DNA of 64,000 nt from Candidatus Omnitrophota bacterium (GTDB taxonomy: Bacteria; Omnitrophota; Gorgyraeia; Gygaellales; Profunditerraquicolaceae): assembly GCA_022710715.1 (NCBI GenBank), contig JAKLGJ010000002.1, forward strand, positions 309,453-373,452, given 5' to 3'. The position numbers were made by a program, and so were the translations under genes. Position 1 is the first letter of the stretch. The number at the start of each line of letters is the position of its first letter. A model generated the notes under the pieces. It searched no databases. It saw only the letters and a list, made by a program, of their open reading frames with translations, and was not told the origin of the DNA. Below, one piece after another: positions 1-46,500 of this stretch.

Positions 1-1599
1 CTGCCGGTCCTGGCGGTCGTGCTCGGCGCAGTCAACCTTATTGCTTTGTTCCGGTATGGTCTGTTCGTGACCCACGCTTATACTATCCTGGTGGGTATCT
101 TCATCGCTTCCCGCGTGATCCCGGGTATGTTCTTCTACCGCATGCCGAAAGACAACGGGATCATGCCGACCATCTCGATGGTCATCCCTGCGTATAATGA
201 AGAAGAGTCCGCCGCCGAAACCATCGACCGGGCGCTGGCCACCGGGTATCCCATGGATAAAGTGGAAGTGATCGCGATCAACGACGGCTCCCAGGACAAA
301 ACCCTTGAGGCGATGCAGGAAGCCGCCGCGCGGCATCCTGCTAACGTCAGAGTGATCGATTTTAAGCAGAATCGCGGAAAAAGAGAAGGTTTGTATGCCG
401 GCGTCATGGCTGCCGGCGGAAATATTATTGTGGTGGTGGATTCCGATTCGTACCTGCAGCCGGGCAGTTTGTATCAGATCGTGCAGCCGTTCGCCGATCC
501 GGCGATACACGCGGTTTCCGGGCACACCGATGTGCATAACGCGGATACGAACCTGCTCACGCGCATGCAGCAGGTCTGGTACGACGTGATGTTCCGCGTC
601 TTCAAGGCGGGGGAGAGCGTGTTCGGCCTGGTTTCCTGCTGCCCGGGGTGTTTCTCCGCCTATCGCAGGGAAGCGTTGCTTAACGTGCTGGAGGATTTCC
701 GCAACCAGCAGTTTGCCGGCACGCGCTGCACCTACGGCGACGACCGCAGCTTGACCAATATGATCCTGCGCAATAACGGTAAAGTCATCTACCACAGCGG
801 CGCCCGGGCCACCACCATCGTCCCCGATAAATTCAACGTGTACCTGCGGCAGCAACTCCGCTGGAAACGTTCCTGGATCCGCGAATCGCTGACCGTGGCC
901 AGCCGGTTCATGTGGCGCAAGAACCCGGTGATCGGCTGGACGTTCTATATCGCCATCCTGGTGGCTTTTATCTCGCCGCTGGTGGTATTCTATCATGTAA
1001 TCTGGATGTCTATGATGTGCGGCGTTTCTATCTGGCTGTATGTGCTGGGCGTGACCATGGTGCCGGTAACCTGCTCGCTGTATTATCTTATCCGCCACCG
1101 GCACGATCCGCGGGGCAATAATTTCATTCACGGCTTGATGGCGATGTACCTGTACCTGGCGGTGCTGGGATCGCTTAATTACTACGCGTTCTCGACTCTG
1201 GTCAATACCACCTGGGGTACCCGCGCCGTGCAGGATGCCAAACCGTCGCTGCTGGGCTCGTTCAAAAAACGCCTGGCTGACCGGCGCGCGGCCCGGCTGT
1301 CCTCCGGCGCAGGCAGAACCGCGCATCCGGTACTCTCCAATGTAGTGATGTCCGGGTTTCTCATCGCTCCGGTGCTGGCTGCGGCGTTCTTTATTTTCCA
1401 GCATCCCGCAGCGATCCTGGGAGCGGACGTTTTGAACGCGGCGCAGTTCTTCGCTTTCACCAATACGTCCATTTCGGTTATCCTGCAAGTTTTCCTTCCG
1501 GCGATCGCGGCATTCATCGGCGCCTACTGGCTGGGTATTATCGGCGCCGTGATTTTTGTGGCCGGAATGTATTATATCTGGAAACGCGTTTCGCAGTAT
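1..1599 (+). other. Domain: GT2 processive beta-glycosyltransferase (hyaluronan synthase/NodC/chitin-synthase type) with flanking TM helices
   Basis: GT-A core begins at about 160 with IMPTISMVIPAYNEE. DGSQDKT, VVVDSDS, YGDDRSLTNM and the QQLRW motif (about 851-865) are the D,D,D,QxxRW signature of processive synthases. Hydrophobic helices lie before it (1-150) and after it (900-1600). Confidence 0.8.
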
Positions 1600-25500: not shown

Positions 25501-28500
25501 ATGGTTATCCGGGATTATTACGCGCGAGACAGCGCAGTTGCCGGGCTGCAGGCGGCATTGGCGGAGCTGCCGTATCTTTCCCGAATCGGCGTGGAGCATA
25601 TCGTGCTTATCGGTTTGATGCAGCATACCGGCAGTCCGTATGAAGTGCTTGATCCTCGCCGGATCGACGAGCGCGCCGGCACTCCGGCTGATCTGGAACG
25701 GTTTGTCCGATCCGCGCATCAACTCGGGATCAAGGTGTTGATCGATTGGCTGGCTAATCAGCATGTCGCCAAGACCAGCCCGCTGGTCCAGGAATTTCCG
25801 GAGCGCTTCCTGTATACCACTGCCAGCGACGGCAATTATTTCAGCGAAGAGCGTCTTGCGCTGGTCAGGGGCAGCGATCTGCCCCGCGATGAGCTGATCA
25901 GTTTGATACAGACAGGCAAAGCCTTAAACGCTCACATCCAGGCCGCGGGCATGCCCCTTGATGGAATCGTCGATCTTGGCGGCCGCCGGATAAAAGTTAT
26001 GCCGGCGCGTCGCGATCTGCGGGAAGTCATCGGTTACCGTAATGCCGATAAGGAATTCATCGCTCCCGAAGCAGCTCTTTTTCCCGTATCGGCGACCGAT
26101 GAAGTGCCTTTACGCTGTTTCCCCAGAAGATGGGGCTCGTTAGCTCAACCCGATCTTTCTTATCTTGAGACGAGAGCCGCGGCTATAGCTATCGGCGCCT
26201 TCTGGCTGGATAAGGGTATCGATGGATTCCGTATTGACGCCGCGCTTTCCACTTTTCCGGATAAAATACAGGAGAATTGGGGGCTGGAGGTAGCGGAGAA
26301 CCTGTCCCGCGATTTCATACTGGCAATGCGCGAGATCGTTCCGGAGGCGTTCATCCTCTTTGAGGGTTTTGAGCGGCATTCCGAATTGCTGGAGATCGCC
26401 GACCGCAGATATACCGGTGTTTACAACTGGAAGCCGCGCAATCTGGTTACGGAAGCATTGACGGATCGCACCAGGCTGGCAGCGCTGGGCGGGTATATCC
26501 TGGAGCTCGAGGGTATGCCGCAGCATATCCAGACGCATGAAGTCAGCCTCGGTCCGGAACATGACGCGTATGATTTCGGCGACGCCTGGGCCCGGCTGGA
26601 CGCTGCTTCCAAGCAACTGATGTATTTTCTCTATCAGGTGCTGCCCGGTTACCTGCTTGTTTTCAACGGCCAGGTTTTCGGCAGGGATCACCTCTATAAG
26701 GGAGTGTACGAGCTGTCCGCGGAAGTCCCCCGGTTCGAGACTATTCCCGCGCAGGAGCTGGCTTCCTGGGAACAGCTCTTCTCGCTGCGCAAGCGGTATC
26801 CGGCGCTGGTCAGAGGAGAGTATCTGGCGCTTTCCGATAAGAACGCGGATGTTTTTGTCGTGGCCAGATTCGATGAAAAAGAGATCGTTCTGGGGTTGCT
26901 TAATCTTACCGCGGAAAACAGATCCGCGGAAATTTCTCTTGAATCGGTGATCGCGCTGCAGGCTACCGGACCGGCCGGAGAGATGTCTTACCGCGTGTCC
27001 ATGGAAACCATGGGGAGGGAGAACAGCGAGAGCATGATCTTCTCATCGAAGTTCAGCCTTACCGTGCCGGCCAGGTCCGCCATGATCATTCGTTTCGAAC
27101 CTGTCCCGCAACCGGAGGGAGTTCCCGACGGCGGCGCGGAATTCCGTCCGGTTAAAGTGGGCGTGATCGGCGCCGGATATATGGGATTGATTACCGCGGT
27201 GTGCCTGGCCGACATGGGGCATACTGTTGTATGCATGGATATCGACAAGGAAAAAATCGGTCAACTGAATAAAAAGACCGCGTATTTCTATGAGCCCGGC
27301 CTGGATGATCTGCTCGGGAAGAACATGGAAACGGGCGCCATCAGATTTACCACTGACATGGCGGATACGGTTCGGTCCAGCGAGATGCTTTTGTTATGTA
27401 TCAATACTCCGGTCAAGGATGACGACAGGATGGATTATGCATATATTGAATCGGCAGCCCGGGATGCTGCGCGGTTTATCCGGGAGCCGAAGACCATTGT
27501 TGTCCGCTCTACCTGCACGGGCGGAGCAACCAGACGCCTGCAGGAGCTCATGAATACATTGACGGATGCGAAGCTCACCATGGTTTTTAACCCCGAGTTC
27601 TTAAGCGAAGGGACCGCGATAAGGAATTTGATGGAGCCGGACCGTATCGTCGTAGGCGTGGAGGATGAACCAGGTCGCCGGGCAATGGAAGAATTGTACG
27701 CGCCGCTTATCGATCGGCGAATCCCGTTCATCGTTACCAGCATTCCCAGCGCGGAAGTGATAAAATTGACGTCCAACCTGTATCTTACCGCCAAAATCTC
27801 TACCATCAATGCGATTGCCAGGCTGTGCGAAGAGACGGGAGCGGATATTACCGAGGTTTCCCGGGCCGTAGGGCTCGACAGGCGCATAGGCGTGGCATTC
27901 TTGAATGCGGGCCTTCCCGCGGGAGGGTCGTGTCTGCCTAAAGATCTGCGCGCCATGGTGCAGATGGCGCAAGATTCAGGATGTGAGTTCAAGATCGGCG
28001 CAGCTATACGCGACTCGAGGGCACAGGAAATCGAGCGATTCATCGAACGAATCGTCAAATTTAACGGAGGCTTGTCCGGGAAAACCGTAGGTGTGCTGGG
28101 CGCGGCGTTCAAACCGCATACCGACGATATCAGGGGATCCGTGGGCGTGGATATTCTGAAAGTCCTGTCCGCCATGGATGTAACCGTCAAAGTGTATGAT
28201 CCTCAAGCGATGCCGAATCTTAAACAGCTGAATCTTCCGTTGAATTACGGTGCCAACGTGTATGATGTGGCCAGGGATAGCGACGCGCTTATTATCATTA
28301 CCAACTGGCCTGAATTCGGGAAGCTCGATCTGCAATTGCTGCGGAGCAAGATGACCAGGCCGGTGATCATAGACGGGTGGAATATGTATGATCTGCCGAC
28401 GATGGAACAGGCAGGCTTCACCTATATTTCCATCGGGAGGCCTGCGGTCATTCAGCCGCAGGCGGACGCTCGAAGAACGGAAGACCTGTTTTCGGACATC

Positions 28501-31500
28501 GTATGCATGCGTGGCGGGAATCTGGATGTCAATGGCACGCTTGCGTCGGCGAAGGGGAAAATCGACCTTGGAACATGGGTAGATATCGCAGGCTTCAGCC
28601 TGATGCGCGGCGTCCCGATGACGGATTCGTTATCCGCTTTGATGCGGTCGGGCATAGTGCTTCTGGATGCGTTTGACCAGCTTCCTCTTGCAAAGCGTCT
28701 TACTTTCTTAAAAGGTCTTACAGCGCTTGCCCGGCAATATCCGCAGGAACTCGAAGAGCTTCTGGCGCGGCTGAACGTACGATTGATCGATATCATTGAG
28801 AAAACGATGACATATCCACGGTCATATCCCCAGGCATTGCCTGAATTATACGAGGCATTGTATCAGGCGGGGTTGGATAACCCGAGGGGGTATCTACCCC
28901 GGGGCATTCCTGCCGGGATAAAAGTGCGCGCCGGACAGGTTTTGGTTGTCGGTGCAGGCAAAATGGGCACAATGAGCGGCGCTTTGATCGGCCGGATCAT
29001 TGCGGCATTGGGAGATGATTTCACTTTTCTGGGGGTAGTAGAGCCTCGGGAAGAGAATATCAGATCATTCACAACGCATTATCTGAAGAAGAACCCGGGC
29101 GCATCCTTGCCGTCATTTTTTGGCTCGATAGCCGAGTTCAAGGCCGCCTCTTCGTTCGATCCCGCGAAAACCGCAGTATATATCGCAACGCCCGACAACA
29201 CCCATTGTGCCGTTCTCAAGGAATTGGCCGCACTGGGAATTACCAGATTCATCCTGGAGAAACCCATAGCCGGTTCACAGGAAGATATCGATGCGATCAT
29301 CCGGCTGCGCGACGAAAAAGGCCTGCATATCGTTATCGATGAACAATTCTTGTATGCCCTGCCCATGCTGCAGGTTAAGGAATATTTGAAAAGGACAGCC
29401 CGCATACCGCTGATGGTCACTCAACTCGGCATAAAAGACCGGACAGCGGATTCGGCCAGCGGAAGAAATATCGAGACCGCCAACATTTTTTATTATGATC
29501 CTTTCCACGCCATATCTATGGCTAATGATCTTCTGGGCTCCGGAGCGGCCGAGGCGGTATTCATGACCGATATGGTCCTGGATGACCGCATCATCGCTTC
29601 CCACGGCTCGGGAGTGGCCATCATGACGCATGAGAAAGGAACGCAGAAAGCCACGGGTGTCATTGCGATGGAACACGAACGGCCGGGAAAGAATACGTTC
29701 GACAGGATACTGAACATTTACAGCAGGGATAGCGATTCGGCTGATTTGAATCTGGTTACCGTCAGCTTCGGTTTTGCGCGGTACTTATTCACCCATCTTG
29801 AGATTGTTGATCAGCACGGAAACGTATTGCAGACCAAAATCGACCAGGATGAAACGCTGACCCTTTCGCTGTATCATTGCCTCATCGGTTTATGGAGCGG
29901 CGCAAAGGTCGTTTCGGAAATAGATGCCATCCTTCTTACCCACGATGTTTTAAGCCAGACGGATTATTTGGCGAATACAGCCAGGCCTTCGGCAGGCTCC
30001 GTGCAGATGGCGGCTATTCATAACCGTGACGCCATGGACTATTTCGAAGATACCGTTTCAGGCATGGCGAAAGGGTATCGGTTCAGGACCGGCCAGGTAA
30101 ACGGCAATATGGAATTAGGCCAGCTGCAGGCCGTCGAGTTCCTCTGGGTAGTGCGCGGCGCGGCGAAAGCCGCTTGTAACGGGCGAGAAGCCATTCTGAC
30201 TGCCGGGGACCAGTTGACAGTGCGGCCCGGCGATCGCGTAGAATTGAGAGGAAGTTTTGATTACGCGCTGGTCGTTTTGTCGGAAACGGGCGCCCGGGCA
30301 TGGGAGACAGCCGTCACTTTCCTGAAAGACGTCCCCGATATCTCCGGCGGATGCAACATAGACCGGAAAAAGCCTTTTCGCAGGACACTCCTGGATGCCG
30401 TAGGAATCAACGGTAGCGACGGTATAAGAGCGCATGTGGTAAAGATTAACAAAGCTACGTCACATCCGCACGCGCATCCCTATTATGGAGCAGGCATATC
30501 TCAAATGGAGTTGTACGTTGTCCTTGATCCTGTCGAATTAGGCATGGCGCCGGAGTATAACCACGGCACTATCGATCTGCTGATCCCATCGTATGCCGGC
30601 GACGACGCAACATACAGATTGTTTAAAGTCGAGACTCAACCCGGAACAGCTATCGTGTTTCCCCCGGGCATCGGCCATCAGGCGGACGGGGTATACGCAT
30701 TGGTGCTCGCGCTCTTGCCCGGGAGCGTTGCGGAAGAGGCGATCGATCTTACTTCCGAGTTTGACGGCGGCGCGGCTCTCGGAGCGCCGCAGCCGGAATC
30801 ACCGTTTCATGTTGTGCACGTTTCTTATCAGGACCCCGAGCATATCGCTGGCGGCCAGGGTGAAGCGGTTCTCAATATCATCCGGGCCCAGGCAGACCTT
30901 GGATACTCGACGACCTGGATATCGCCGTGTGTTAATGACGAAATACCGGGGGAATATCTTTACAGCAATTATAATCTGCAATTGGTGAAGATCAGGATCC
31001 GGGATGACCCGGTAGCGACATTCTTCGATAGCACTGAAGAAACACAGGGTTGCCGCGAAAAATTCGGCAGTTTGTTCGTCGATTACATACAAGAACGATA
31101 CGACCCTTCCCAGGCCTATATTCATCTTCACGGATTTATTGAAGAACCCCGCCGCGCCGCGGCATTACGCAGTCTCGGTTTTAACGTTACTTCTACATTC
31201 CATATGTTTTTGTCGCCGCGCATGGATACGACCAGTGACCATAACGCGTTTTATCCGGAGCTCAAGCGTATCGAATATGAAGCGATAACCGCGAATTCCA
31301 AAGTTATTGTGAATAGCAACGCGATGCGGGAGGAATTGCTGGCGCTGGCAGGCGATTATGCGGGGGATGTGCATATGGTTCCCAACGGTGTCGGGGAAGA
31401 ATATTTCGTTTTATCCGACACTGAAAAGGATGCAGTTCCGCTGGTGACCACCTACGGCAGGATTTCACCCGAAAAGGGGTTCGATACATTTATCGAAGCA

Positions 31501-34500
31501 GCACGCATTATTACCGACAGGCGCCGGGCCCAAAGCAAAAGTCCGGTCAACTTCCTTGTTTTCGGAAAGAGCAATGATGCTATCTCTGCGCGTAAAGAGT
31601 ACCGGCTGAAGCTGGAGCGGCTGGCACGGGATTACGGCAATATTACTTTGAAGATGAGCGGTCCCGGGGTCAGCGATGCCGAGAAGCTGGAGTTGATGCA
31701 GAGAAGCTGGGTGGGGGTGGTTCCGTCGTTATATGAGCCGTTCGGCCTGGTGCTGGTGGAATATATGGCCCGGGGAGTGCCGCTGATTTCTTCCCTGACT
31801 CACGGGTCCAGGGATATCCTGGAGACGGCGCATCCGGGCAGGACGCCCTACGGCATTGTCGTGGATGTCGAGGCTCAGCAACTGGCCGACGCCATCGAAG
31901 AGCTGATTGACAAACGGTCATTAGCAGAAGAGTTGGCCGCGAATGCCCGTACCAAGGCTCTCCAGCAGTATCGCTGGATGCCTATTGCACGGAAAATTCT
32001 TGATATTTACGCGACCGAGAGCTTCTCGGATTTTGAACTCGCGCCGTTCACCCGGGAAGAAAAGCTGGATGCGGTGGCAGTGATGCATGCTATTGAACAG
32101 GCGGACGCGCAGGGCTACGTAGAATTCCTGAGGCCGCTGTTCAGGTCATCCCGCGGGCATAATCGCGCCCGTGATATAGAGCGCATGTTTGAGAACGGCC
32201 GGTTGTACCAAATCTTTCCCCATTTGAAGCTTCTCGCCAGCAAGGAGATGTCCGGCCATCCTGCGCCGCACGAGATGTTCCATGCCCTGGACAGCCTGGT
32301 CAGGCTTGATACTGCGGGGTATTCCGGCATGCGCAGGTTTACGTTCGAGCGCGCAGGCAAAAATGCAGGCGCGCTTCCAGAGGTCGATTTTACCGCGATC
32401 CCCGGGTTTACCGGACTAATCAAGAGAATTTTCTCCCGGACCGACGAAGAAATGCGGGAGATCCTGTTTCTGCTGCCGTTTATCGTGGATATCGGCAGAT
32501 GCGTCAAGCCCCAGGCGCATCCTGAAAGCGGAGCGTTCTATTTTGTAAGCCCGCTTTTAAGCAGGCTCGGCTTCAGCCGGCAGGCTATTGAGACGGCAGT
32601 TGCACTTGTCGGCAAGCATGTGGATATCGGCACGATCGTGACCACCGAAAGCACTCCTGACCGGCTGTTTGCCGGATGCCAGCTTTCCCGGGACGCCATG
32701 GATATTTTAACCCTGGTTGCTATCGCTGACAGAAGCTATGGGATCCGAGCCGATGATCTGACTGTTTTCGAATTCCGCGCCTACCTGGCTTGGGGCGATC
32801 AGGATTCGCCGGAGAGAAGCCAGTGGCAGAATACCGCTGACTGGCATCTGCGCAGGCTGGGCAGGTATTTGAAAATGACTCCCGGAGAAGCGCAGTTGAT
32901 GCTTGATGCCATGGTTGCCGCCGGCCAGCTGGACGCCCGGGATCTGGAGGCCATCAGGCATTTCTTCGGAATACAGATCGAATTTATCGATTACGGCGAC
33001 GGAGTATTTAAATATATGACCGGCAGGCCGGACGGGAAGGAGCTTTTTGTCAAGACGTTGGCTATCTACGCCAGATACCTGTCCGCGATCAGCGCGCCGA
33101 TTAACCGGGTCAACCTGGTTAAGGATAGGTTGTATGTCATGGCTTTGACCAATGCTATGCGCTCTCTGTCGTACTCTTCCTCTCCCGAGGAGATTGTAGA
33201 CCATCTGGCTGCTTACGGTATCGCCTTGGTTCTTGTCGGGAATACCACTCTGGTGACCAGGATTACCGATCCCATTGGCCATCTGCGCAGGTTATGCGAA
33301 GAGCGCTGGGATGCGCTGGTGAATACAGCCTTAGCCCGCCAGGTGCAGGAGCGCGGCATTGAGGAAGTCGAGCAGGCGGTTGATCTCGGGCAGGAACCCG
33401 GGATTATCTGGTTTGCCGAACAGATCAAGTATAAAGTGCTGGACGATCCCGAAGGTATAACGCAAGTGAAGGATATTCTTCCTTCGGCAGAAAGCAACTA
33501 TCAGGTTCAGTACAATGTCAGCCGGGGAGTTCAACGCGGTGTGGGAAGAGATACGGTTCCGGCAGCCAATCAATGCGATTTCTGTCGGATGGCTGTAGGA
33601 AAAGATACCGAAGGCCAGTTGCAGGATCTTGAGGAGGCGCTGGGCTTGCCCTATGTGCTGGTTGCCGACAGCCGTCCCTTCTTCGATCGGCACATGCTGG
33701 CGCTGGAAAAGGACCATACCGGAAAGATCACACAGGAAGGCATGCGGGATCTGTTGACCATCTTCAATACCCTCTTCCCGGGGAAAAGAGGCAATATCGG
33801 AACCGGGAATGCCGCCAGCCACCTGCATATCCATATTTACAATACGAGATTTCCCGTTGAGCGGCAGCCGCGCACCTGGTTGCGCGATTCCGGCGATGTG
33901 CGTGTGGGTGTATTTGAAAACGATGTGCATACCGCCGGATTTGTGGTGGAAAGCGCGGATATGGAAGCTTTATCGGCCCAATCTTACCGGATCGTCCAGG
34001 AAATCGAGTCAAAGGGCTGGCTGGTGATCCTGATCACCGCTCCCCATCAGGTGTACATTATCCCACAGCGGACCAAGGAGATAGGAAGCGATTATCCGGA
34101 TATATTCGACGGGTTCAAGAGAACGCGGCGCCCTGAAACCAGGCCGCGCTACGTGGGGCCGGTGGAGGCGGCAGGCATCTGGCTGTGCTACAGCCGGGGC
34201 AATATCCCCGCCATGTACGAGATGTATGACGCGATGAACCTGGAGATATTCCGCAACATCATCAGGGATACCGGCGTTAACCGCAATGATCCCCGGCTGG
34301 AAGAGATGCTTGCGGGATTGACTGTTGACGGAGGCACTGCGGATCCGGAGGCTCTCGCGGTTTTTAAAGAACAGATGGACGCCAAATGGGAGGCATTGCT
34401 GAACAGGGATCTGGAAGCCAGGGTTGCGCGGGAAGGCATGGCGCGGGTGGAAGCGGAATCCGATCTCGGCCATGAATCGGGGATCGTCTGGTTCCCGGAC

Positions 34501-37500
34501 GAGATAAAATACAAAGTTCTCGACAATCCGGAGGGTGTGCGGGAAATCGGCGGCGTGCGGCCTCCTGCCGACAGCAACTATATGGTACAGCATAACGTCA
34601 GCCGCGGCGTGGCCAAATATCATGACGGCGAAGGCTGCGGCTTCTGTGGAGTGGTCAGCGGCCGGAAAGATACGGATACTATCCTGGCCGATCTCGAGGA
34701 TGTTGTTGGCCTGCCGTACATGCTGGTTGCCGATACCCGTCCGTTTTTCAACAAGCATATGCTCGCCCTGGAAAAAGGCCATACCGGAAGGATTACTGCC
34801 AGCGGCATGCGTGAGCTGCTGACGATCTTCAATACCTTATTTCCGGGCAGAAGGGGTAATATCGGCACAGGCAATGCCGCGGAACACCTGCATATACATA
34901 TTTACGATACCGAATTCCCGATCGAACGCCAGGAACGCAGTTGGCTGGTTGACACTGGAAAAGTCAGGATCGGGTTGCTGGAGAGCGACGTGCATACCGC
35001 CGGCTTCGTAGTGGAAAGCGCGGATATGGATAAACTTTCAGACTATGCCTACCGCATCGTCTCCCGCGTCGAGTCCAACGGCTGGCTGGTGATCCTGATC
35101 ACCGCCCCCAACCAGGTCTATGTCATTCCCCAGCGCACCAAGGAGATCGGGGATAATTATCCTGCGATCTTCGACGCTTTCAAGAAGAGCCGGCCTGCGG
35201 GCTTGAGGCCGCGCTACGTGGGGCCGGTGGAGGCGGCAGGCATCTGGCTGTGCTACAGCCGGGGCAATATCCCCGCCATGTACGAGATGTATGACGCGAT
35301 GAATCTGGAGATATTTCGCAACATCATCAGGGATACCGGCGTTCCCACGGATGACGAAGCCCTGGGTGCAATGCTTGATGCCGTGCGATCCTACGGTCGG
35401 GAATTAAAATCGGATCAGCAGAAGCTGGCCTTTATCGATAACTCCCGGGTGGCGTACGTTGAATTACACCTGACCAATACCTGCCAGCTGAAATGCGGCT
35501 GGTGCGCATATAAGGGGGTGGATAAGAAACAGCATCTGCAGTTTGGCGACCTCGACAAGCTGCAGGAGTTGAATCCGGAAGAAATCCTTTTTGTAGGCGG
35601 AGGGGAACCCACGCTTTACCGCGATGCCCGGGCAGGTAAAGATTTCAACGATGCCGTTCTGCGTGTGCGCCAGCTGTGCCCGCAAGCCAAGCTGCGGCTG
35701 ATCACTAACGGCGTGGTCGTCCCTCCAGGCGAATGGGTCCGCGAGATTTCGGAGTTGAGCATATCCTTCGACGAGCCGACCCGTGAAGGATACCGGGAAC
35801 ATAAAGGTGCGGATAAGTTTGCAGATGTATGGGATAACATGGTCTATTATATTCGCGACAGCCCGATTCAGTCCAACCGTGTTACACTGATCTACAATAA
35901 AGAAAAACTCGAAGCTGCACTGATGTTCGCCGGAAAACTCTGGCGCATGTGGCAGGAAATGACGGATAAAGGGGCACTGTCGCAGGAAAAGGCAGACAGC
36001 TTCCGCTATATGATCTTTCCTATGGCCGATGACAGTAGCCCGGATGCGCCGTATGCGGAAACGAAGCTGACTGATCAAGAACAGCAGGAATGGCAATTGC
36101 GTATGGAGCGTATTCGCGGGGAGAATCCCCGCTGGTACCGGTTCCTGGCGGACCATACCAACCTCATTGTCCAGCCCTTAAGTGTTCTTGACGTGCCGTC
36201 GGTAACCCGCTGCCCTACGGTGACCAATTATCTGGTTATGGCTGCGGATAGACAGTATTATCCGTGTTTTGCCATGTGCGAAACCTGCAGCAAAGTCACC
36301 CTGGGGTCCGTTGAGCAGTCGATGCAGGAATTGGCAACGCGAAGGGCGGCGCTTTACCTGCATCCCGACGAGCGCTGTAAAGAAGGGTGTCGGCCCGGAG
36401 CGACTTTTTACGGGGTGCGCGCGCAGGGTCTTTTTGCCGAACAGTTCAGGAATCGGGTTTTTGCTACATGGCAGGGGCTGGTAGAAACCAAGCTGGCTGC
36501 GGATGTGGATCGGGCCGGCATAGAAACCGTTGAGAAAGAAACCGACATTGGCAGGACTCGAGGCATTGTCTGGTTTCCCAGCCGGATCAAATATAAAGCG
36601 CTGGGAGATGCGTTTACCAAAGAAATCCGGGCCGGGCCGCAGGCTCCGCCTGCCGGCTCATATCTAGTCCAATACAACGAGAGCCGGGGTACCAGCCGCA
36701 GCGAACCCAAAGGCTGCGTTTTCTGCCAGCCCAGAGAGAATCTGATCCTCGCCGACTTGGAAGATTATTTCGACCTGCCGTATATCCTCTACGCCGATTC
36801 CCGCCCCTTCTTTGATAAACACATGCTGGTTATTGCCAAAAGGCACACCGGTGTGATCACGTTGAACGTCCTGCGCGATTATCTCTGGATATTGAATACT
36901 CTTTTTCCCGGATTGCGTGGCAATATCGCAACCGGCAACAAGATGGCGCATTTTCACCATCATATCTATGACGTCGAATTCCCGGTGGAGAGAAGGCCCA
37001 AACGCTGGTTGATCGAATCAAAGCTGTTTAAGTTCGGCACCGTCGATAATGACGAGGATACCGCAAGCTTTGTGCTGGAAAGCGAAAACAGCGATATCCT
37101 GGCGCGCAAGGCTTTTATCGTGATCAAGGAACTTGAAGCCCGCGGTTTGCTTACCTGCGTCGTCGTCGCGCCTCATCAGGTGTATATCACTCCCCAACGC
37201 ACCAAGAGCATCGGTGACGATTATCCGGATGCCCTGGTGCCGTTTACCGCGCATGTTCCTGCCGGCGTGCGTCGCAGGTTTATCGGGCCGGTGGAGACCG
37301 CGGGAATATTCCTCTGTTACAGCCGCCCGGATATACAGGCGATGAAACAGATGTATGAAGGCATGGATTATAGTCTGTACCAGCGCATCCTGCGGGATGT
37401 CGGTGTTTCTCGTGGGGACCCGGCGATGGCTGACCTGGAAGCCCTGTTTGCTCTGGTGCTGGACGAGGAAAGATTTTTCATGAGCCTCTTCGACATGCAG

Positions 37501-40500
37501 GCGCAGAACAATGCGTTCTCCGGCGGCAAGGGCGCGAATTTAAGCCATCTGGCCGCATTGAGCGGTTTGCTGCGCGAGCCTTCGGCTGCGGATATCGATC
37601 TAACCGTTCCGATAAGTTACATTGTTTCTGCCGGTGTTTTTCAATCCGTGGTCTTGAGCCGTCCGGAAACAGCGGCTAAGATCGAGAAGTTGGAAGCGGC
37701 TTCGGCCGCATTGGAAACGGCTGATGTCATTGAGGCCGTACGCCTGGAGGAAGAGATTGTTTCTCTCGCCAGAGCGATTCGTAATGACATCCTCTCGGTA
37801 GAGCTGCCTGCTGAAGTCAAAGAGGGATTGGCTGTTATATTCGCTGCCGCGGGGTACCGGGCTGCGATGCGCAGTTCGGCGACCGTCGAGGATTCCGACC
37901 AGAATTCCTGCGCCGGTCAGGCGAAGAGCGCCTTGAATGTGATTACTGCGGAACAGGCGGAATCAGAGCTGAAGCAGGTGTGGGCAAGTCTGTATGACCC
38001 AAGTTTCGTCCAATACCGCAATGACCGGAATGTGGGGCATGCCGGTTCTTTCATGGCAGTGGTGGTGCAGGAAATGGTCGATGCGAAAGTCGCCGGGGTC
38101 ATCCTGACACTGGAAGAGCAGTCGAAACGGTCCGCTTTCCGCGTGACCGCTAACTGGGGGCTGGGAGAATCCGTGGTGCAGGGAGATACCCAGACGGATT
38201 CCTGGCTAGTCAGCCCGGATGCCCGGTACCTGCTGGAATCACGCATCGGGGTCAAACACCTGAAGACCGAATATGACCCGGAGCGCGGCGGGGTGCGATC
38301 GGTTGCAACCAATACTGATGCTGCGGTCAGCTCGTTGTCCGATCAGCACGTCCTGGCCATATGCCGGGTGGCTAGGATGATACGTGATCATTACCGCGCG
38401 CACCGGCAGGTAGCTCACGTGGACATTGAATTCGCGGTCAGCAAAGGCGATAATAAGCTTTTTATCCTTCAGACCCGGCCGGTGACTTCCGGCGATATCA
38501 AAGAAACAATAACGATAAATACGGTGATCCGGGACCGTCAGACGGAGCCTGTTGCGGAAATAACCTTCAAGCAAGGTCTGATATCCAATAAAGGAGCTGT
38601 AACCGGACGATTGCAGGTTGTCGAACGGGCAGACGGCTTCGATGAAGTGCAGGAGGGGGTTATCCTGGTAGCATCCGCAACGAATAACAACTGGAACGCC
38701 GCGTTCAAGAAGATCAAGGCAGTGATCACGGATTTTGGCGACAGTAACTGTCATGCGGCGATCGCTTCCCGGGATGCCAAGCTGGGGCTGGATATACCTT
38801 CGCTAGTCGGGGCTAAAGACGCTACCGCCAGGCTTAAGCCCTATGAAGGGCAGATCGTGACCATTGATTCCCGTCTGCGCACAGTATTCATCGGGGAAAT
38901 GCCCATCGAACCCCTGGAAGTTGAAACGGCTCTCTGGCTGGAGGAGGCTCTTGCGATACGCAGTCAGTTCGAAGGTACGATGTGGCAGCGGTTGAAGGGG
39001 TATGCTAATGCCATGAGCGATTTTGAAGGACACTGGTTTGGCCGCCCGCGTATTCCCTATAGCTTTTTCCAGCTTGATTATTATGACCGTGCGCATGAAC
39101 GGACCGATCGGATACATACCGTGTTCGACTGGCCGGAAAACTCCTTTGAGGGCCCTGTCCCCGCGGTGGAAGCCTGGGGCAGGAAAATAAAGGACGATAT
39201 TATGTATCTGGAGGTCCGGGATGAACCGTACGATGCCCTGGGCGATTTCTTGAGCAGGTTAACCATCGACGGTTTTGAGTATCTTTTTGACCGGCGCTGG
39301 GAAGAGATACAGCGGATCGAACAGTTCACGGTCGGCCTGGAAAAGATCACCGCTTCCAACGCCGCAGATGTGTCCGCCCTGCTGGTAGAAAGCCTCTTCT
39401 GGTCATCCCTGGCTTTTGCGATCAAGGACGCTTTGCTTGAACGCTATGTGAATCCGCAATTGCGCTATATTTCCGACGAGCGCGACGAATCGGGGTATTC
39501 CTACCAGGAGATCATGAAGGACCTTGCGCTGGAGCGCAGGTATCCCGATCGCACGCGCAGCATCGAATCCGCCTACGCCCGGGAACGGGAAAGTATCCTT
39601 CAGGAGATTTTCGGAAATCCCTCTGCCCGGGCGCTGCTGATAGCCGGAGACTACCAACGGTTTGCTGCCGGCTATCCGGGTTTCATGTCCCGGCTTGAGG
39701 CATTGTCCGCATCGTACAAATTCGGCACCGAGGACGTCAGGGTTCTTTCCGATACCCGCCGCTATCTTGAGAGTTTCAGGAATACCCTCGCCAACTACTC
39801 TCCGGATCGCAGGGCGTTGCAACCGGTCAGCCCGTTGAGAATGAACACCGCGGAAGATGCTCTGAAGACCTATCCCAGTCTGGAGAGGATCCTGGCTTTA
39901 GCCAAGCATAACGAGGATGTCAGGAACGATATGCACCACATTATTCTCAGGCTGCAGAGGAAGATCGCTCCCCTGATGACAGGGATAGCCGGGAGCTTTC
40001 CGGATATCTTCGATTCCGCGGAAGATATATTCAGGATCTCTACGGTTGAGCTCGAGGCTCTTCTGCACGATGATCATCCGTACTACCTGCGCCTGACTCC
40101 GTATCGATACAGCCTGACGACAGAAGCGGAACAGGCATTGGAATCAGCATGGTTCGAAAACAGGGCAGCGGCTTTAGAAGAGTACCGCACCTCGGTCGAA
40201 CGGATTGCGGTTATCCTGGAACAGCAGATCGGTCAGGCGGCATATCTGCCGGTCAAGGAGTATTATGCGCAGGAACGCGACCGATTGTATCGCCGCGTGC
40301 TGAGGCTGGAACAGCTTGATGGCGGAGCGGCATCCGGACGGCCGAACAACCGCATCCGGGTGCTGTGTCTGGGCGATTCCATCACCAAAGGTTCGCACGG
40401 CCGGCATCGGCCGGACGTCTTCGGTTACAGAAAAACGCTTCAGCGTTTGCTGGGGATGCAGGACTACGAGTTAGTCGGGCCGTACCGTAATCCGCCCCTC

Positions 40501-43500
40501 GAACCTGGCTATTTGGTCCGGCACGCCGGCAGGAGCGGAGACACCACCGCGGACATCCTGGACCGGCTCGAGCAAACTCTTGCGGATTATCTGCCGCCCC
40601 GGGCCGGCAGTCCGTCGATGATCCTGCTGCATGCCGGCACCAATGATTGCGGTCTGATGACTATGGGAGAGCCCGTTAGCGCCGGTCAGATAGCCGAAAA
40701 TCTCCGAACAATTCTGTCGACCATTGACCGTTTCGATCCGTCTATCGCCGTTTATACCGCTTCGATCGTGCCGAGTTCTTATCTGCCCATGGACCTGAAC
40801 ATCCGTGATTTTAACCGTGAGTTGGACGCTGTCATCAGCGGCATGCAGGTGCGTAAGAATAACCTTTATTCTGTTGACATGTACAGTGTTTTCGTAAATA
40901 ATGAAAGCTGGAAAACAGCTTATCTGGCGGATGCGATCCATCCGTCCGACGTCGGCTATGCGGTCATGGCCGGCGTATGGTATAAAGCAATTTGTCCCGG
41001 CGCTACCCTCGACTTCTACCTTACCGTGGCTGGTGGGGAAGTAGATGGTGTTCACAGCGCCGGGGCATTTTTATTCCCCGGCGATCCGGCTCCCGACGGC
41101 GGGAAGAACAGCGAAATTCCCCTGCTCTGGGAAGGCGAAGTGTTCTGGGTCGAACCGTTCTCTACGCGTGAAGTCCATTGCGCTCTCTGCGGCAAATATT
41201 CATTCTCTCCTCTCGGCTGTGTTGTGCTCAACCGCATCCAGATGTATATCGTAAAATGCGACAACGACGGTTTTATGTGGCTTAATCCCCAGCCCAACGG
41301 CCGCTTCTACGAACAGCTTCACGGCAAGGAATATTTTATTTCCTCCAACAAAAGCCCGGCGTTGATGGAGCAGGTCGGCATCGTCGAGATAGGCAATGAT
41401 GAAATGGCGGCGCAGCGCGCGCGCGTGGCCAGGATACGGGCGGATGAACTGGAAGCGGCCTGGGGAAGAGAGGGGAGCGCGCTTGAGATCGGCTGCGCCA
41501 GCGGCTTTGTGCTTACGGAACTGAAAGCCCGCGGCTGGAAAGTGCAGGGCGTCGATATTTCCGACTACATCATAAAAGTGGCCGGGCGCAGAGGGCTGAA
41601 AGGACTGGTGCATGCCGTCGAATTGAAGAATATGCATTATCCGCCGGATGCTTTCGATGCGGTGCTGATGTACGACGTGCTGGAGCATGCGCCGAATCCG
41701 TTTCAGCTGTTGAGGATCGTCCGGCGGATCCTGCGTTCATCCGGGGTATTGATCGCTCGTCTGCCCGAAACGCCGGAAAGCGGGCCGCAACTTCATTTGA
41801 TCGACCATATCAGCCATTTTACCCGCGGAAATATCGTCGAATTGCTGGAGAAAGCCGGTTTCCGCATCGAGTCGATAGAGAATTCCGGGCTTTTCCAGGG
41901 CAGCGCAGGAAGGACGATTCAGAATATCACGGTCATTGCCCGGCCGGGTCAGGATGGGGGTAAGAGCAGTGTCAGCAGGAAGAACCCCATACGTTTATTC
42001 GTCTATGGAACGCTTAAAAAAGGACATCACAACCATTCCCGTCTGGGTCCGGCCAGGCTGGTGGCGAACAATGCCCGCATGGAAGGGTTCATTCTTTACG
42101 AGCATATCCAGGGTTGGTATCCTTTCGCGGTCGTAGAAGAAGGATCGTATATCACCGGAGAGATCTATGAAGTGGGGCAACGGGAATATATGAATACCCT
42201 GGTCATCGAGAAAAGCGGCGGTTACGAGGTGTGGGAATCCGACGGTGTCAGGATGTTCTATCTGCCGCGGACTTTGCTGGAGTACTTTATCCGGGAAGGC
42301 CGGATCGCCGCCAAGCCGGTAGGGCATACCTGGACGGACCGTTACGATCCGGTGGGCTATCCGAATTGGTGGCGCGACGGCGGGGCGGATCCGGTAACGG
42401 TAACGGACATCCAGGATGTGTTGGCCATGCTCCGGCCGCGTATCACGGAGAAACGCCGGTATGCGAAAACCCCGTTTTTGATCTTTGTTGCCGGCAAGTC
42501 CTGCTCCGGAAAAACCTCGGTCGTTTCGAATGTGTTGAAGAAAGAGTTCCAGGCTAAGGTGCTCAATATGGATAGTTATTATCTGGGCAGAAGCTATATG
42601 AAGAAGAACGGCCTGGATAATTACGATGTTCCGGAAGTGTTTGACTGGAAGCTTTTCCGCAAGCAGCTGGAGCAGTTGAGCCGGGGCAAAACCGTGCAAG
42701 TCCCGGAATATTCATTCGCCAGAGGCGAGAGGGAAGGATATGTAAACTTTTCGCCTGCTCCGGTGATCATCGTGGAGGGGCTGTTCACCCTGGATAATTC
42801 CATCAGTCATCTGGGCGATTTCGGCATTTTCGTCGATGTGGGCAAGCTCGGCCAGTTGCTGCGCCGCGTCAATCGCGATGCGGCTGCGCAGGGGATCAGG
42901 TATGTTCTCAAGCAGATGTTTACCCAGGTAATTCCCGCCCAGGACGCGTATCTGGAACCGACCAAAAAGAATGCCGACGTTATTCTGCTCAACGATTACA
43001 ATGCGGATGAGGAAGCGGAAAAGATCGGTGTTTACGAATTGCAGGCCAAGGCTCGGATCGGATCCTCGATCGCCATCGAACAGGCTATTCGCGTTTTGGG
43101 CGCCAAACCGACGGCGCAGGCGCTCCAGGTGGATTCATATTATGCGCCCCGGGACAAAAAGCTGCGAGAAGCGCACGAGACGTTGCGTATACGCATCCAG
43201 GATCATCAGGTAAGCGCGACCTACAAAGGACCGCTCTTGCCGGCGGCGATGAGTTATCGGCCGAAACTGCTTTTCGCTTTTGAAAAAGAATGGATCCCTT
43301 ATGTGGAGAAGGATTTTTCTTTACAGGCCAGAGTGGTCAAGACCAGAAAGATCTTTACCTGCGGGGAGCTGTTCATTCACCTGGACCAGGTCGAAAATCT
43401 GGGCGCGTTTATCGAGATCGTCAGCACGCACCTCGGGTCCCAGCAAGCGATACAGGCGCTTCTGGCGAAACTCGGCATTGCGCAAGGCGCCCTGATCAGA

Positions 43501-46500
43501 GAAAGCTATTTCGAGCTTAGTCAGCGGCAGCGCAGTCAGGAGCAGGACGGCGGCAACGACGAATCGCACGCCCGGCTGGTTGAGACGCTGCGGATCATGG
43601 AACAGGCATACGGCATCGTGGGCAGGTCGGGTAAAAAACCTGACCGCGTCGCGCGCGTTTTCGCCGCAGCCGAAGAAGCGTTCTTTGCCGCGCAGAAAAA
43701 ACTTCCCGCTGCGCGCCGGCTGGCCTATCACGATCTGCGCCACGCGGCGGAAACGGCTTTGTTCGTGGCTCGCGCGCTTGAGCAGGAACGGTCTTTCCGG
43801 CAGGCGGGATTCGGATATCAGGTCATGGAGCTGGCGGTGATCGCGGCTCTGGTCCACGACAGCGGGTACTGGCGTCCGGAATGGTGGAAATGCGCGGCTG
43901 TCCACGAAGAAGAATCCAAAAAGTTCCTGGAGCGGCCGGATATGCGGCGCTTCTTTTCGGAAAAAGACCGCGCGATCGTGGCGGAGATGATCGAATTCAC
44001 CAAATTTTTCGGAGAGGAAAATGCTCCCGGCAGGATTTATTCCCGGGTGAATCTTTCGCCGACGTACAAAATCGCCGGGACGCTTCTGGGCATAGGCGAC
44101 CTGCTTACGGTGTACGGCGAGGACGCGATTATCGAGAAAGGAAAAGAGTTAAACCGTGAGATGGAAGCGTCCGGGCAGGGGATAGCGTCGGAGCGGTTGT
44201 ATGTGGAATGGAATGCATTCTTCGAGCAACAGGTCATTCTGCGGCTGGGGGCTTTCGGGAAGATCTACCGGAGAGAATACCTGCGTCCGTACCGGAACAG
44301 ATTGTGGATCAATCACCGCATGATCTCCGCGCTGGCCCGGATGCAGATTTTTCGCGGTAGAAACCCTTCGGATACGATCGCATTGTATCCGGGGTATTTC
44401 AACGGTCCGTCCGATTCGACGCGGGATGTGGTCAGGATCGCCCGGAGCATATTCGGCAAAGTCATCGTGGTGGTTTTGCCGGAAGGTCTGCAGGATGCGG
44501 AATCGCTTGAAGACAAAAGGCGCGCAATGGTCAAACTGCTGCAGCCGGATGACTGGAATTTCCGCTCGGTTCGGGTTATCGCTTTGCCGCGACCGGAACT
44601 GATCGAAGAGCTGGCCGCAGCGGTGAACGCGCGCATCCTCATCCGCCGGCTACGCTCCCGCGTGCCGCAAGAAAAGCTGGCTGCGGAGGCGGCGAATGCC
44701 AGGATCAATTATCAGCGGTTCGGGCTGGAGACCTATTTTGTGATCCCGGCGAACAGGTTCCTGATCATCGAGGATAACCTGCTGGCTAAATATCAGGCGG
44801 CATTCGAAAAAATGCTCGGGTTAGCCCCGGGCAGCCGCGATATCCGTTCGGATGAGTTCGCATCGCTTATCCGGGAATACAACCTGAACCGTTTCGCTCC
44901 CCGGGGATTGCCGGTCAGCGACAAAAAAGCATTCTATGTGGGAAGTTTCGATCCGGTCACTCTGGGGCATCTGGAAGTGATCAGGCGTCTGAAAAGGGAT
45001 TTTCACCGGGTTGCGGTGGGGATCGGGGTCAATCCGGATAAAAAAGAAAACGGAATGTTCGCGTCCGAAGAGCGGAAAGTCCTGATCGAGCGCGCCCTGG
45101 CCGATGCAGGGATAACCGGAGTGGAGGTGGTGATCTACGAGGGCAATACCGTTGACCAGGCGCGTAAGCTGGGCGCAGGAGTTCTGGTCAGGGGAGTGCG
45201 TTCGGTCAAGGACCTGAAAGAAGAGCTGGCCTGGAAATTCGCGAATGCGCTGCTTGACGACGGGATCAAATCCCTGATCGTGGTTCCCTATACCTATACC
45301 AGGGTCAGCTCGAGCGCAGTGAAGCGCAGTCTGGCCGCGGGGATGGATGTGGAGGATGTCGTTCCGGCTGCAGTGGCCAGAGCATTGCAGGTCAAACAGC
45401 GGTTTTTGTTAGATGATGACCAGCGTGATGGGGGAGAGTTTCTTCAGCAACAGATGGAAGAACTCAAGGCGCAGGCGCAATCGGATCCCGCGCATGCGGT
45501 AGCTATCCTGGAAGCACGGCTGACCGATAATAAAGCCCATCCGGATCTGCGCAATCTGGCCGCGGATATGCTCCTGGAATTCGGCGATCCGGCTGCTGTG
45601 GGAAGCCTTTTGATCGTTTTGCTCGGCGATACCGGCACGCAGCATCGCGTGCGCTCGCACGCTGCCGAGTTGCTCGGCCGGATGAAGGAGCAGGCAGCCC
45701 TGAATGCGCTGATCCGCTCGCTCGGGGACGGGAATAATTACGTGCGTTCCCGGTCGGCTTGGGCGCTGGGAGAACTGGGGATTGCCGGCGCAGGCCGCCC
45801 GCTGCACAGAGCTTTGCTTGCGGAAGATAATACCTACGCTATCCAGCAGATCATTTATGCTCTGGGCAAATTGCGTTACGCGAGCGCCTGCAATGATATC
45901 GTGCATATTCTGAAAACCGGACTGGCGCCGGTTCGTATCGCCGCGGCACAGGCGCTGGGAGAGATTCGCTGCGCGCAGGCGGTAAAATCATTGATCGGCG
46001 TATTGAGCGATCCGCATGAAGCATTCCGAACGAGGGCCAACGCCGCTTTCTCGCTCGGGCAACTCGAAGATTTGCGGGCGGTCGAACCGCTGATCGACGC
46101 TATCTGGTCCGAGCACGATACTACTATACGCAAACAGGCGGCCAGAGCGCTGGGTATGCTCAAGGATAAAAGAGCGGTCAGCGCTTTGATCACTGCGCTG
46201 GAAGACGAAAACCAATTTGTCCGGGAGAACGCTGCCTGGGCGCTGGGAGAATTAACGGACAGGCGGGCGCTGGACCCTCTGCGCGTCGCTTTGCGCGATA
46301 TGAATGATTTTGTCAGCGAAGAGGCTGCGCGCTCCCTGGGCCGGATGGCCAGGGGCGGCCATCCGCGGGCAGTGGACATCCTGATCCATGGATTAGCCGC
46401 GGATAAGACAGTCCACATTGCGTACGCGGCGCTGGGGCTGGGTTTAACCCGCAACAAGAGGGCGGTATTTCCTTTGATCGGCATGCTCAATCATCCCGAT

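Follow-up and report, generated by a model that had tools for sequence, protein, structure and literature searches.

A radical SAM domain with a predicted Twitch-type auxiliary cluster and recurrent partner domains inside a giant Omnitrophota protein

Introduction

What does a radical S-adenosylmethionine (SAM) enzyme do when it is built into a protein longer than 21,000 residues, and on which side of the membrane does it work? The question is raised by a 64,000-nucleotide stretch of a Candidatus Omnitrophota bacterium (assembly GCA_022710715.1, contig JAKLGJ010000002.1, positions 309,453 to 373,452; hereafter the window), all of which is one stop-free frame on the plus strand (frame 1, 21,333 codons) that is open past both ends. 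Few known genes are as long as the giant ones of Omnitrophota, whose function and membrane topology are both disputed. A first, sequence-only reading of the window had marked residues 11814 to 12150 as an oxygen-sensitive radical SAM/SPASM domain in a membrane-anchored megaprotein, and had argued that its presence constrains the topology of the chain and suggests anaerobic physiology.

That Radical_SAM is a recurrent domain of giant Omnitrophota proteins is already known. It is listed among the top-20 Archaeovorin domains, where it is glossed as 'SAM-dependent methyltransferase' (West-Roberts 2023, bioRxiv 10.1101/2023.11.21.568195), and it belongs to a sugar-metabolism co-occurrence module, being reported from 90 long Omnitrophota proteins (Nielsen & Lui 2026, bioRxiv 10.64898/2026.06.07.730766). 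New here are the assignment to the Twitch type together with the conserved ligands, the module of a family 4 glycosyltransferase (GT4), a domain that we call X, the radical SAM domain and a dikinase, with its unfused operon, and the use of the radical SAM domain as a marker of sidedness.

Results

The domain has a genuine radical SAM core

Residues 11814 to 12150 are a genuine radical SAM domain, because family profile, catalytic motifs, predicted fold and structural neighbors all say so. The Pfam family Radical_SAM (PF04055), on whose match the sequence-only reading had made its proposal depend, covers residues 11824–11969 (nucleotides 35470–35907) with 36.4–37.9 bits (E 3e-9 to 8e-9) against a gathering cutoff of 29.5 bits. 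The C-x3-C-x2-C string that had first drawn attention, CQLKCGWC, lies where it had been placed, and its three Cys are kept in 54/54 relatives of an alignment that comprises 30 copies from giant proteins and 24 standalone copies. The GGGEP motif is similarly conserved (GGG in 54/54, E in 51/54, P in 52/54). In radical SAM enzymes the CX3CX2C triad binds the [4Fe-4S] cluster that cleaves SAM, and the GGE motif binds SAM itself. Strings with the spacing C-x3-C-x2-C occur twice in the 21,333 residues, compared with 0.005 expected from residue shuffles, and both lie inside this domain, which is also the most Cys-dense 337-residue stretch of the protein (10 of its 150 Cys, which make up 0.7% of all residues).

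The AlphaFold2 (AF2) model of the domain (predicted local distance difference test score (pLDDT) 79, predicted TM-score 0.83) shows six alternating strand/helix units, as in a (beta/alpha)6-type core. In a Foldseek comparison with the PDB, the top 50 matches listed were all radical SAM enzymes, with E values down to 1.5e-10. CteB ranked first, BlsE second and DesII fourth, and SuiB, viperin, SkfB, anSME, MoaA and BtrN were also matched (TM-scores 0.4–0.6, 12–17% identity).

The auxiliary site is predicted to be of the Twitch type

The SPASM domain proposed for the C-terminal part proved to be only half right: an auxiliary Cys domain is real, but a full SPASM domain is not. The SPASM motif contains seven Cys in the order CX9-15GX4C-gap-CX2CX5CX3C-gap-C (PMC6231123), and Twitch is its truncated form, which binds one auxiliary cluster (PMC6231123, PMC9012708). 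In the window copy, the Pfam SPASM family (PF13186) found no match even at E<=10, the second-cluster element CX2CX5CX3C is absent, and only four auxiliary Cys are conserved; on the missing PF13186 match and second-cluster motif we reject a full SPASM domain. In the orthologue of locus L001 (described below) PF13186 scores 15.7 bits, under its cutoff of 21.5, and some distant relatives come near the threshold.

The four conserved residues are C12071 (nucleotide 36211, at the start of CPTV...), C12089, C12126 and C12130. They are invariant in 30/30 giant copies, are present in 22–24 of the 24 standalone copies, and keep the spacing C-x17-C...C-x3-C. C12071 and C12089 belong to the CPTV...CFAMCETC cluster of the sequence-only reading; C12126 and C12130, the two Cys of 'CKEGC' (nucleotides 36376–36390), had not been listed there. 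CFAMCETC itself (residues 12089–12096, nucleotides 36265–36288) is the second of the two C-x3-C-x2-C strings, and only its first Cys, C12089, is invariant in the family: C12093 is found in 9/30 giant copies and C12096 is not conserved, which is why we rejected it as a second functional triad.

In the AF2 model the ligands come after the six core units, in the order Cys, beta-hairpin (query residues 278–281 and 286–288, pLDDT 70–88), Cys, helix (309–321) and Cys-x3-Cys. The Twitch domain of BtrN likewise has four Cys, one on each side of the hairpin and a further two after the helix that comes next (PMC6231123). The family consensus includes C-x12-G-x4-C, the first SPASM/Twitch motif element, whose Gly four residues before the second Cys is present in 42/54 relatives and is replaced by Arg in the window copy and in 8/30 giant copies. 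Aligned by the family profile, this region corresponds to the first half of SPASM in CteB and to the SPASM region of anSME. Because the four conserved Cys follow a BtrN-like layout of Cys, hairpin, Cys, helix and Cys pair, our verdict from sequence and model is that the domain is of the radical SAM plus Twitch type, with one predicted auxiliary Fe-S cluster.

The domain falls outside the characterized families

Judged by sequence and structure comparison, the domain sits in the neighborhood of SPASM/Twitch enzymes and their relatives, as a member of no characterized family. NCBIfam models (HxsC, viperin, MoaA, tungsten-cofactor maturase and others) score roughly tenfold below their cutoffs, mainly over the generic core, and on these scores viperin, MoaA, HxsC, anSME, PapB and other named families were rejected. 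The best match, maturase HxsC, reaches 30 bits, far under its cutoff; viperin (NF038283) reaches 25.9 bits against 180, over residues 21–125 only, and MoaA (TIGR02666) 25.4 bits against 284. A known anti-phage defense system was rejected as well, as PADLOC returned generic pVip core matches for the radical SAM domain (26 bits, profile positions 2–113 of ~260) whereas GT4, X and the dikinase gave no match. The best PDB sequence-profile matches over the core were MoaA (E 3e-10) and viperins, and BlsE was also matched.

Comparison with individual enzymes shows which traits are shared. BtrN (2-deoxy-scyllo-inosamine dehydrogenase, PDB 4M7T) likewise combines a radical SAM core with a Twitch domain and a four-Cys auxiliary site in a carbohydrate-type context (Foldseek E 1.5e-7). 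Its auxiliary cluster is fully ligated, as the conserved Cys predict for the counterpart here. BtrN differs in being a small standalone enzyme of an antibiotic pathway, at ~13% identity and a TMq of only 0.40, and the final Cys pair here is C-x3-C. BlsE and DesII (PDB 7VOB, 8HZV), which edit a nucleoside sugar or a TDP-sugar, align at TMq 0.54–0.59, but at 13–15% identity and with no operon partner family in common. As here, their surroundings include glycosyltransferases and nucleotide-processing enzymes. CteB, anSME and SuiB resemble the window domain in the C-terminal subdomain, which matches the first half of SPASM (C ... G-x4-C then 'lGN'); the window domain lacks their CX2CX5CX3C element, and hence a second auxiliary cluster, as well as their N-terminal peptide-binding domain.

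A four-part module recurs in giant proteins and in an unfused operon

GT4, X, radical SAM and dikinase are a recurring four-part module that is shuffled among Omnitrophota giants and is also found as an unfused operon. When 1.84 billion representative proteins were scanned exhaustively with HMMER, only 264 relatives of the radical SAM domain emerged at E<=1e-3. The best ~30 of the 264 lie inside long proteins or fragments of 600–6,400 residues and the rest are standalone proteins of 330–490 residues; all close relatives with a named source, the nearest at 40–50% identity, come from Omnitrophota metagenome-assembled genomes (MAGs). A genome scan added locus L001 of a Candidatus Omnitrophota MAG, an all-open frame of at least 7,017 codons and 41% GC, whose radical SAM domain is 45% identical and which is collinear with window residues 9540–13436 (GFO, U, GT4, X, radical SAM and dikinase, U being an unannotated domain). 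The window protein itself is absent from a 5.8-billion-protein index, whose best match is 27% identical, and the relative returned by a scan of metagenome contigs is also 27% identical. In the relatives P0018–P0027 and P0033 (36–50% identity), GT4, X and dikinase recur in shuffled order: rSAM-X-dikinase, GT4-rSAM-X-dikinase, rSAM-GT4 and GT4-X-rSAM (rSAM, radical SAM). GT4 adjoins or lies near the radical SAM domain in P0019–P0021, P0023, P0025–P0027, P0033 and L001, and the dikinase is collinear with the window in L001, P0018, P0021, P0022, P0024 and P0027. More distant proteins of 1,000–1,500 residues are fusions of dikinase and radical SAM, or of GT4, dikinase and radical SAM. Two relatives of ~4,300 residues carry two tandem radical SAM/Twitch copies (P0016, residues 1654–2331; P0017, residues 1981–2719), and one of them is annotated at source as '3-dehydroquinate synthetase / MoaA-NifB-PqqE family'.

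The unfused version lies on a 60%-GC metagenome contig (L007, 2894–9040) as four overlapping genes for dikinase (917 residues), GT4 (399), X (348) and radical SAM (at least 386, reaching the contig end), which are 27/39/41/45% identical to the respective window segments and are apparently translationally coupled. Its X gene product (P0165) was the single protein returned by a word-index search with the X profile. Upstream of the operon lie a divergent gene for an unannotated protein of 388 residues and an Fe-ADH gene.

Neighborhoods of other standalone relatives vary; those around P0034, P0037, P0049 and P0052, on short or otherwise unrevealing contigs, do not enter the comparison. In L009 (4884–9095), P0039 (33% identical) directly follows a GT4 gene; genes of the ThsA_Macro-domain, 2-phosphosulfolactate-phosphatase-like and restriction-endonuclease-like kinds lie further upstream. 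The neighborhood could be a conflict-system context, but PADLOC lent this no support for the domains of the window. A Margulisiibacteriota operon comprises PHP, radical SAM, an unannotated gene and GT5/GT4; its PHP and GT5 genes have homologous counterparts elsewhere in the window protein. Distant standalone homologues (L002, L005, L006) have an N-terminal extension of 100–125 residues with an RN..R.LNH motif, and their pairing with PNP_UDP_1 genes recalls HpnH/HpnG and MqnE/MqnB.

Domains flanking the radical SAM core

The partner domains in the window are listed in Table 1. For U, neither Pfam nor NCBIfam has a family match. The three X copies, two before the radical SAM domain and one after it, are joined by linkers of <=15 residues and are 45–66% identical overall (by self-BLAST X1 is 66% identical to X2 and 47% to X3). 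X has invariant CxFC and HxHxH motifs and no match in Pfam or NCBIfam; its PDB profile matches are three HIT-family proteins at non-significant E values of 0.02–0.13, over the region from CxFC to the following beta structure.

The dikinase continues from its ATP-grasp part into a mobile phospho-His domain with the motif NCHAAIASR, followed by ~450 conserved residues without a known family, and the NCBIfam PEP synthase model covers it over profile positions 6–472 of 798. Because Pfam and NCBIfam detected no domain that binds phosphoenolpyruvate (PEP) or pyruvate in this region, the role in pyruvate/PEP interconversion published for such PPDK domains seems doubtful here. In its predicted architecture the dikinase is closer to the rifampicin-phosphotransferase or glucan-water-dikinase type.

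Table 1. Coordinates of the giant frame, the radical SAM domain, its partners and the bounding membrane clusters (aa, residues; TM, transmembrane)
Feature	Window position (nt)	Residues	Strand	Basis or remarks
Giant open reading frame (ORF) fragment, multi-enzyme gene	1..63999		+	Free of stops in frame 1; ~30 different Pfam enzyme domains, all in-frame
N-terminal bounding TM cluster (2 or 3 putative helices)	9718..10020	3240-3340	+	Kyte-Doolittle and inspection
GT4 glycosyltransferase, recurrent radical SAM partner	30811..32010	10271-10670	+	Pfam Glyco_transf_4 and Glycos_transf_1, 92 bits
Domain U, unannotated, ~410 aa, between GT4 and X1	32023..33252		+	Kept in L001 (39.5% identity) and P0027
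X1, first ~335-aa putative HIT-like copy	33283..34293		+	CDFC at aa 11192, HLHIHIY at aa 11274
X2, second putative HIT-like copy, ends ~14 residues before radical SAM	34354..35400		+	CGFC at aa 11546, HLHIHIY at aa 11629
Radical SAM plus predicted Twitch-type domain (337 residues)	35440..36450	11814-12150	+	Pfam PF04055, homologs, AF2 model, Foldseek
CQLKCGWC, C-x3-C-x2-C triad (C11828, C11832, C11835)	35482..35505	11828-11835	+	Family alignment
GGGEP, 'GGE'-type motif of radical SAM core	35596..35610	11866-11870	+	Family alignment
Predicted Twitch-type auxiliary-cluster subdomain	36211..36390		+	C12071, C12089, C12126, C12130 conserved
X3, third putative HIT-like copy, begins where radical SAM ends	36445..37437		+	CVFC at aa 12239, HFHHHIY at aa 12317
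PEP-synthase-like dikinase	37477..40275		+	Pfam PPDK_N ATP-grasp 197 bits, PEP-utilizers 50 bits
C-terminal bounding TM cluster (~4-5 putative helices)	50596..51123	16866-17041	+	Kyte-Doolittle and inspection

The giant reading frame and its membrane segments

The GC content of the window is uniform (0.52–0.59 along its length), at 55% overall compared with 41% in L001. The longest open stretch in the other five frames is 655 codons; the long minus-strand ORFs, of up to that length, all share one antisense frame and look like a codon-bias shadow rather than genes. Pfam scans covered all 21,333 residues. Besides the order GT4, Radical_SAM, PPDK_N plus PEP-utilizers around 35 kb, they identified a GT2/chitin-synthase-like domain with TM helices, GH9-like, two UDP-glucose dehydrogenases, HAD, GT5 starch-synthase-like, GT1, amylo-1,6-glucosidase, alpha-amylase, a GFO/IDH/MocA oxidoreductase, cupin, SGNH, a methyltransferase, GGACT, PRK/uridine kinase, CYTH, cytidylyltransferase, HEAT repeats, GNAT, PHP and further methyltransferases. 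The GH9-like and SGNH modules of the sequence-only reading are thus real matches, but its carbohydrate-binding module (CBM) is not borne out by any Pfam match at E<=0.01 across the 21,333 residues.

With an ORF of >10,000 residues that has TM helices and GT5, GT1, HEAT, methyltransferase and PPDK_N domains, the window protein fits the Archaeovorin type in length and domain content. It resembles such Omnitrophota giants in its >21,000-residue ORF, TM clusters, GT5, GT1/GT4, HEAT, methyltransferase, PPDK_N, HAD, GNAT and Radical_SAM. Most full-length examples also have divergent SecA_DEAD and peptidase domains; Pfam found no SecA_DEAD, peptidase or NUDIX domain within these 64 kb of a gene that extends beyond both window ends.

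Hydrophobic clusters lie at residues 1–50, 317–520, 723–848, 3240–3340, 16866–17041 and 20953–21004, and two of them flank the radical SAM domain, in keeping with its proposed embedding in a membrane-associated megaprotein. Between these two, residues 3340–16866 (~13,500 residues) contain no credible TM segment, the flagged stretches being Rossmann or ATP-grasp strands or charge-bearing. Together with the radical SAM domain this segment holds GT5, GT1, GDE, amylase, UDP-glucose dehydrogenase, GT4, the dikinase, SGNH, methyltransferase, uridine-kinase-like PRK, cytidylyltransferase and HEAT repeats. The GH9 domain lies in the neighboring segment, next to an NAD-dependent UDP-glucose dehydrogenase.

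Several units elsewhere in the chain stand out. A processive GT2/chitin-synthase-like glycosyltransferase occupies nucleotides 1–2550 (residues 1–850; Glyco_tranf_2_3 116 bits, Chitin_synth_2 72 bits); it carries ~10 hydrophobic helices, the window begins inside it, and it could be a membrane polysaccharide synthase/exporter. Glycogen-type enzymes are fused in series at nucleotides 16500–26500 (residues ~5900–8800): GT5 in three stretches, GT1, amylo-alpha-1,6-glucosidase (GDE_C 297 bits) and alpha-amylase. The two UDP-glucose dehydrogenase units are separate (residues ~2157–2634 and 9052–9464), and HEAT repeats (HEAT_2 208 bits) are found at ~46000–46400 (residues ~15345–15470) and ~59300–59550.

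Discussion

How might a radical SAM domain serve a glycosyltransferase-rich giant protein? We lean, if not strongly, towards the view that residues 11814–12150 are a catalytically competent enzyme with one four-Cys, BtrN-like auxiliary cluster that would edit a nucleotide-linked sugar or glycoside by radical chemistry. In this scenario, the CX3CX2C cluster would cleave SAM reductively to a 5'-deoxyadenosyl radical, and this radical would take a hydrogen atom from a sugar carbon; the nucleotide-linked sugar or glycoside concerned would be one that neighboring domains make or consume. The fully ligated auxiliary cluster might then accept an electron from the substrate radical, as has been proposed for BtrN (PMC9012708). 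Overall, the substrate would undergo either oxidation by two electrons or a rearrangement, for example dehydration, decarboxylation or epimerization, and the giant gene would represent the separate genes of a pathway fused into one chain. We infer this kind of substrate from three sets of observations: structural and sequence neighbors include BlsE, DesII, BtrN, viperin and MoaA; an N-terminal extension for peptide recognition is missing from the closest relatives; and an independent study of Pfam co-occurrence assigns radical SAM to a 'sugar metabolism' module of long Omnitrophota proteins (Nielsen & Lui 2026). More tentatively, GT4, a HIT-like X, Twitch radical SAM and dikinase may together make up an undescribed pathway to a radical-edited, possibly phosphorylated glycoside or nucleotide sugar, which in the giants would belong to a glycan assembly line at the cytoplasmic face that extends over tens of kb.

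Alternatively, the domain might be a SPASM/Twitch-type maturase like anSME, the sactisynthases or SkfB, acting on the giant protein itself or on another protein, for example by thioether or C-C crosslinking, formylglycine formation or epimerization. Most characterized SPASM/Twitch enzymes do use peptides (PMC9012708), the best Foldseek match is the sactisynthase CteB, followed by the peptide or protein modifiers SuiB, SkfB and anSME (at TM-scores of only 0.5–0.6), and HxsC is the best NCBIfam match, at the sub-cutoff score given above. The N-terminal extension of the distant homologues could recognize a peptide, and small unannotated ORFs lie nearby. Yet a maturase acting on RiPPs, peptides made by ribosomes and modified post-translationally, is disfavored, because the closest relatives lack this extension: the core begins no more than 22 residues from the start of the domain or gene in the window copy and in L001, the L007 gene, P0034 and P0039, and the window copy, whose core starts ~14 residues past X2, has no N-terminal peptide-recognition domain of the RRE (recognition element) kind. 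The conserved partners, moreover, include no precursor peptide, protease or transporter but comprise a glycosyltransferase, a HIT-like domain and a dikinase, and across all 21,333 residues the Pfam scans turned up neither a sulfatase nor a glycyl-radical-enzyme domain. We consider a maturase unlikely. Quite unlikely, too, is an enzyme whose substrate is a free nucleoside triphosphate, in the manner of viperin (CTP to ddhCTP) or MoaA (GTP cyclization), with the HIT-like domain and dikinase then processing the modified nucleotide. Such a role would fit the MoaA and viperin profile matches, including the weak 26-bit viperin/pVip similarity of the N-terminal ~110 residues, as well as the nucleotide-handling neighbors (HIT-like X and the ATP-grasp dikinase, with PRK/uridine kinase, CYTH and cytidylyltransferase further downstream) and the Macro domain near the radical SAM gene in L009. 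However, the viperin and MoaA family scores cover generic core only and stay far from their cutoffs, the tightest partner of the radical SAM domain is a glycosyltransferase, and viperins are not known to have an auxiliary cluster. MoaA shares the Twitch domain (PMC9012708), but its auxiliary cluster has three Cys and leaves an open iron for GTP (PMC9012708, PMC6231123), whereas four Cys are invariant here.

The distant homologues suggest yet another chemistry, namely radical adenosylation as in HpnH or MqnE, in which the 5'-deoxyadenosyl group is added and adenine is later removed by a nucleosidase. Standalone homologues P0001, P0002 and P0009 adjoin genes of the PNP_UDP_1 nucleosidase family, the family of HpnG and MqnB, and P0001 has a weak HpnH match (E 3e-4). 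But these homologues are only 25–27% identical to the window copy, their nucleosidases could merely recycle 5'-deoxyadenosine, and no PNP_UDP_1 domain occurs in the 21,333 residues of the window or in the L007 operon, so that we regard adenosylation by the window domain as improbable. An inactive relic carried along in a huge gene would be in line with the mosaic nature of giant genes, which combine many divergent domains (West-Roberts 2023), and with the Arg that replaces the conserved Gly of C-x12-G-x4-C in the window copy. Against this, all seven ligand Cys and GGGEP are intact here and in 30/30 giant copies despite 25–50% identity, and the recurrence of the same Arg among other giant copies marks it as a tolerated variant; a relic is thus highly improbable.

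On which side of the membrane would radical editing take place? Radical SAM enzymes depend on SAM, on a reductant of low potential and on Fe-S assembly in the cytoplasm, and it is not plausible that one with two conserved Fe-S sites works outside the cell. These needs make the domain an internal compass. Because of them, and because the same TM-free stretch houses NAD-, NDP-sugar-, ATP-, CTP- and SAM-dependent domains, we infer that residues 3340–16866 are cytoplasmic; this is an argument from cofactors, not a topology prediction. The constraint on topology that the sequence-only reading had foreseen therefore stands, whereas nothing supports its assignment of the GH9-like and SGNH modules to the extracytoplasmic side: SGNH shares the TM-free stretch with the radical SAM domain, and GH9 has an NAD-dependent enzyme beside it. 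Sidedness by helix counting from the cytoplasmic GT2 catalytic domain was also considered and dropped, as hydropathy leaves the parity ambiguous. The inference argues against the TMHMM-based view that most Archaeovorin domains are extracellular, HEAT repeats exclusively so, from authors who flagged their own TM calls as unreliable (West-Roberts 2023), and it agrees with the reading of the sugar-metabolism module, including radical SAM, as lying at the cytoplasmic face (Nielsen & Lui 2026). As to physiology, the window contains no gene besides the giant one, and an anaerobic lifestyle is merely consistent with the Omnitrophota affinity and the reported absence of an aerobic terminal oxidase in this group (Nielsen & Lui 2026).

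Besides the peptide-modifying structural neighbors, several points count against a cytoplasmic sugar-editing enzyme. On present evidence dehydrogenation is indistinguishable from other radical outcomes, and the last pair of auxiliary Cys sits at pLDDT 42–59 in the AF2 model. The HIT-like nature of X is a lead drawn from motifs and non-significant matches, and the AF2 model of X from the three window copies reaches pLDDT 49. The distant standalone homologues (25–27% identity; L002, L005, L006) adjoin PNP_UDP_1 nucleosidase genes, not glycosyltransferases, and the family may lack a single substrate class. The TM segments were called by a 19-residue Kyte-Doolittle scan and inspection only, with helix parity of 2 versus 3 and of 4 versus 5 both possible, and translation of the giant protein as one chain is predicted from the reading frame alone.

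If the radical SAM domain is a reliable compass, it would place ~13,500 contiguous residues in the cytoplasm, including HEAT repeats, GT5, GDE, amylase and SGNH. The unfused L007 operon offers a tractable four-gene stand-in for a protein of >21,000 residues. A cytoplasmic-face glycan assembly line, if true, would overturn the reading of such giants as extracellular, prey-wall-degrading proteins.

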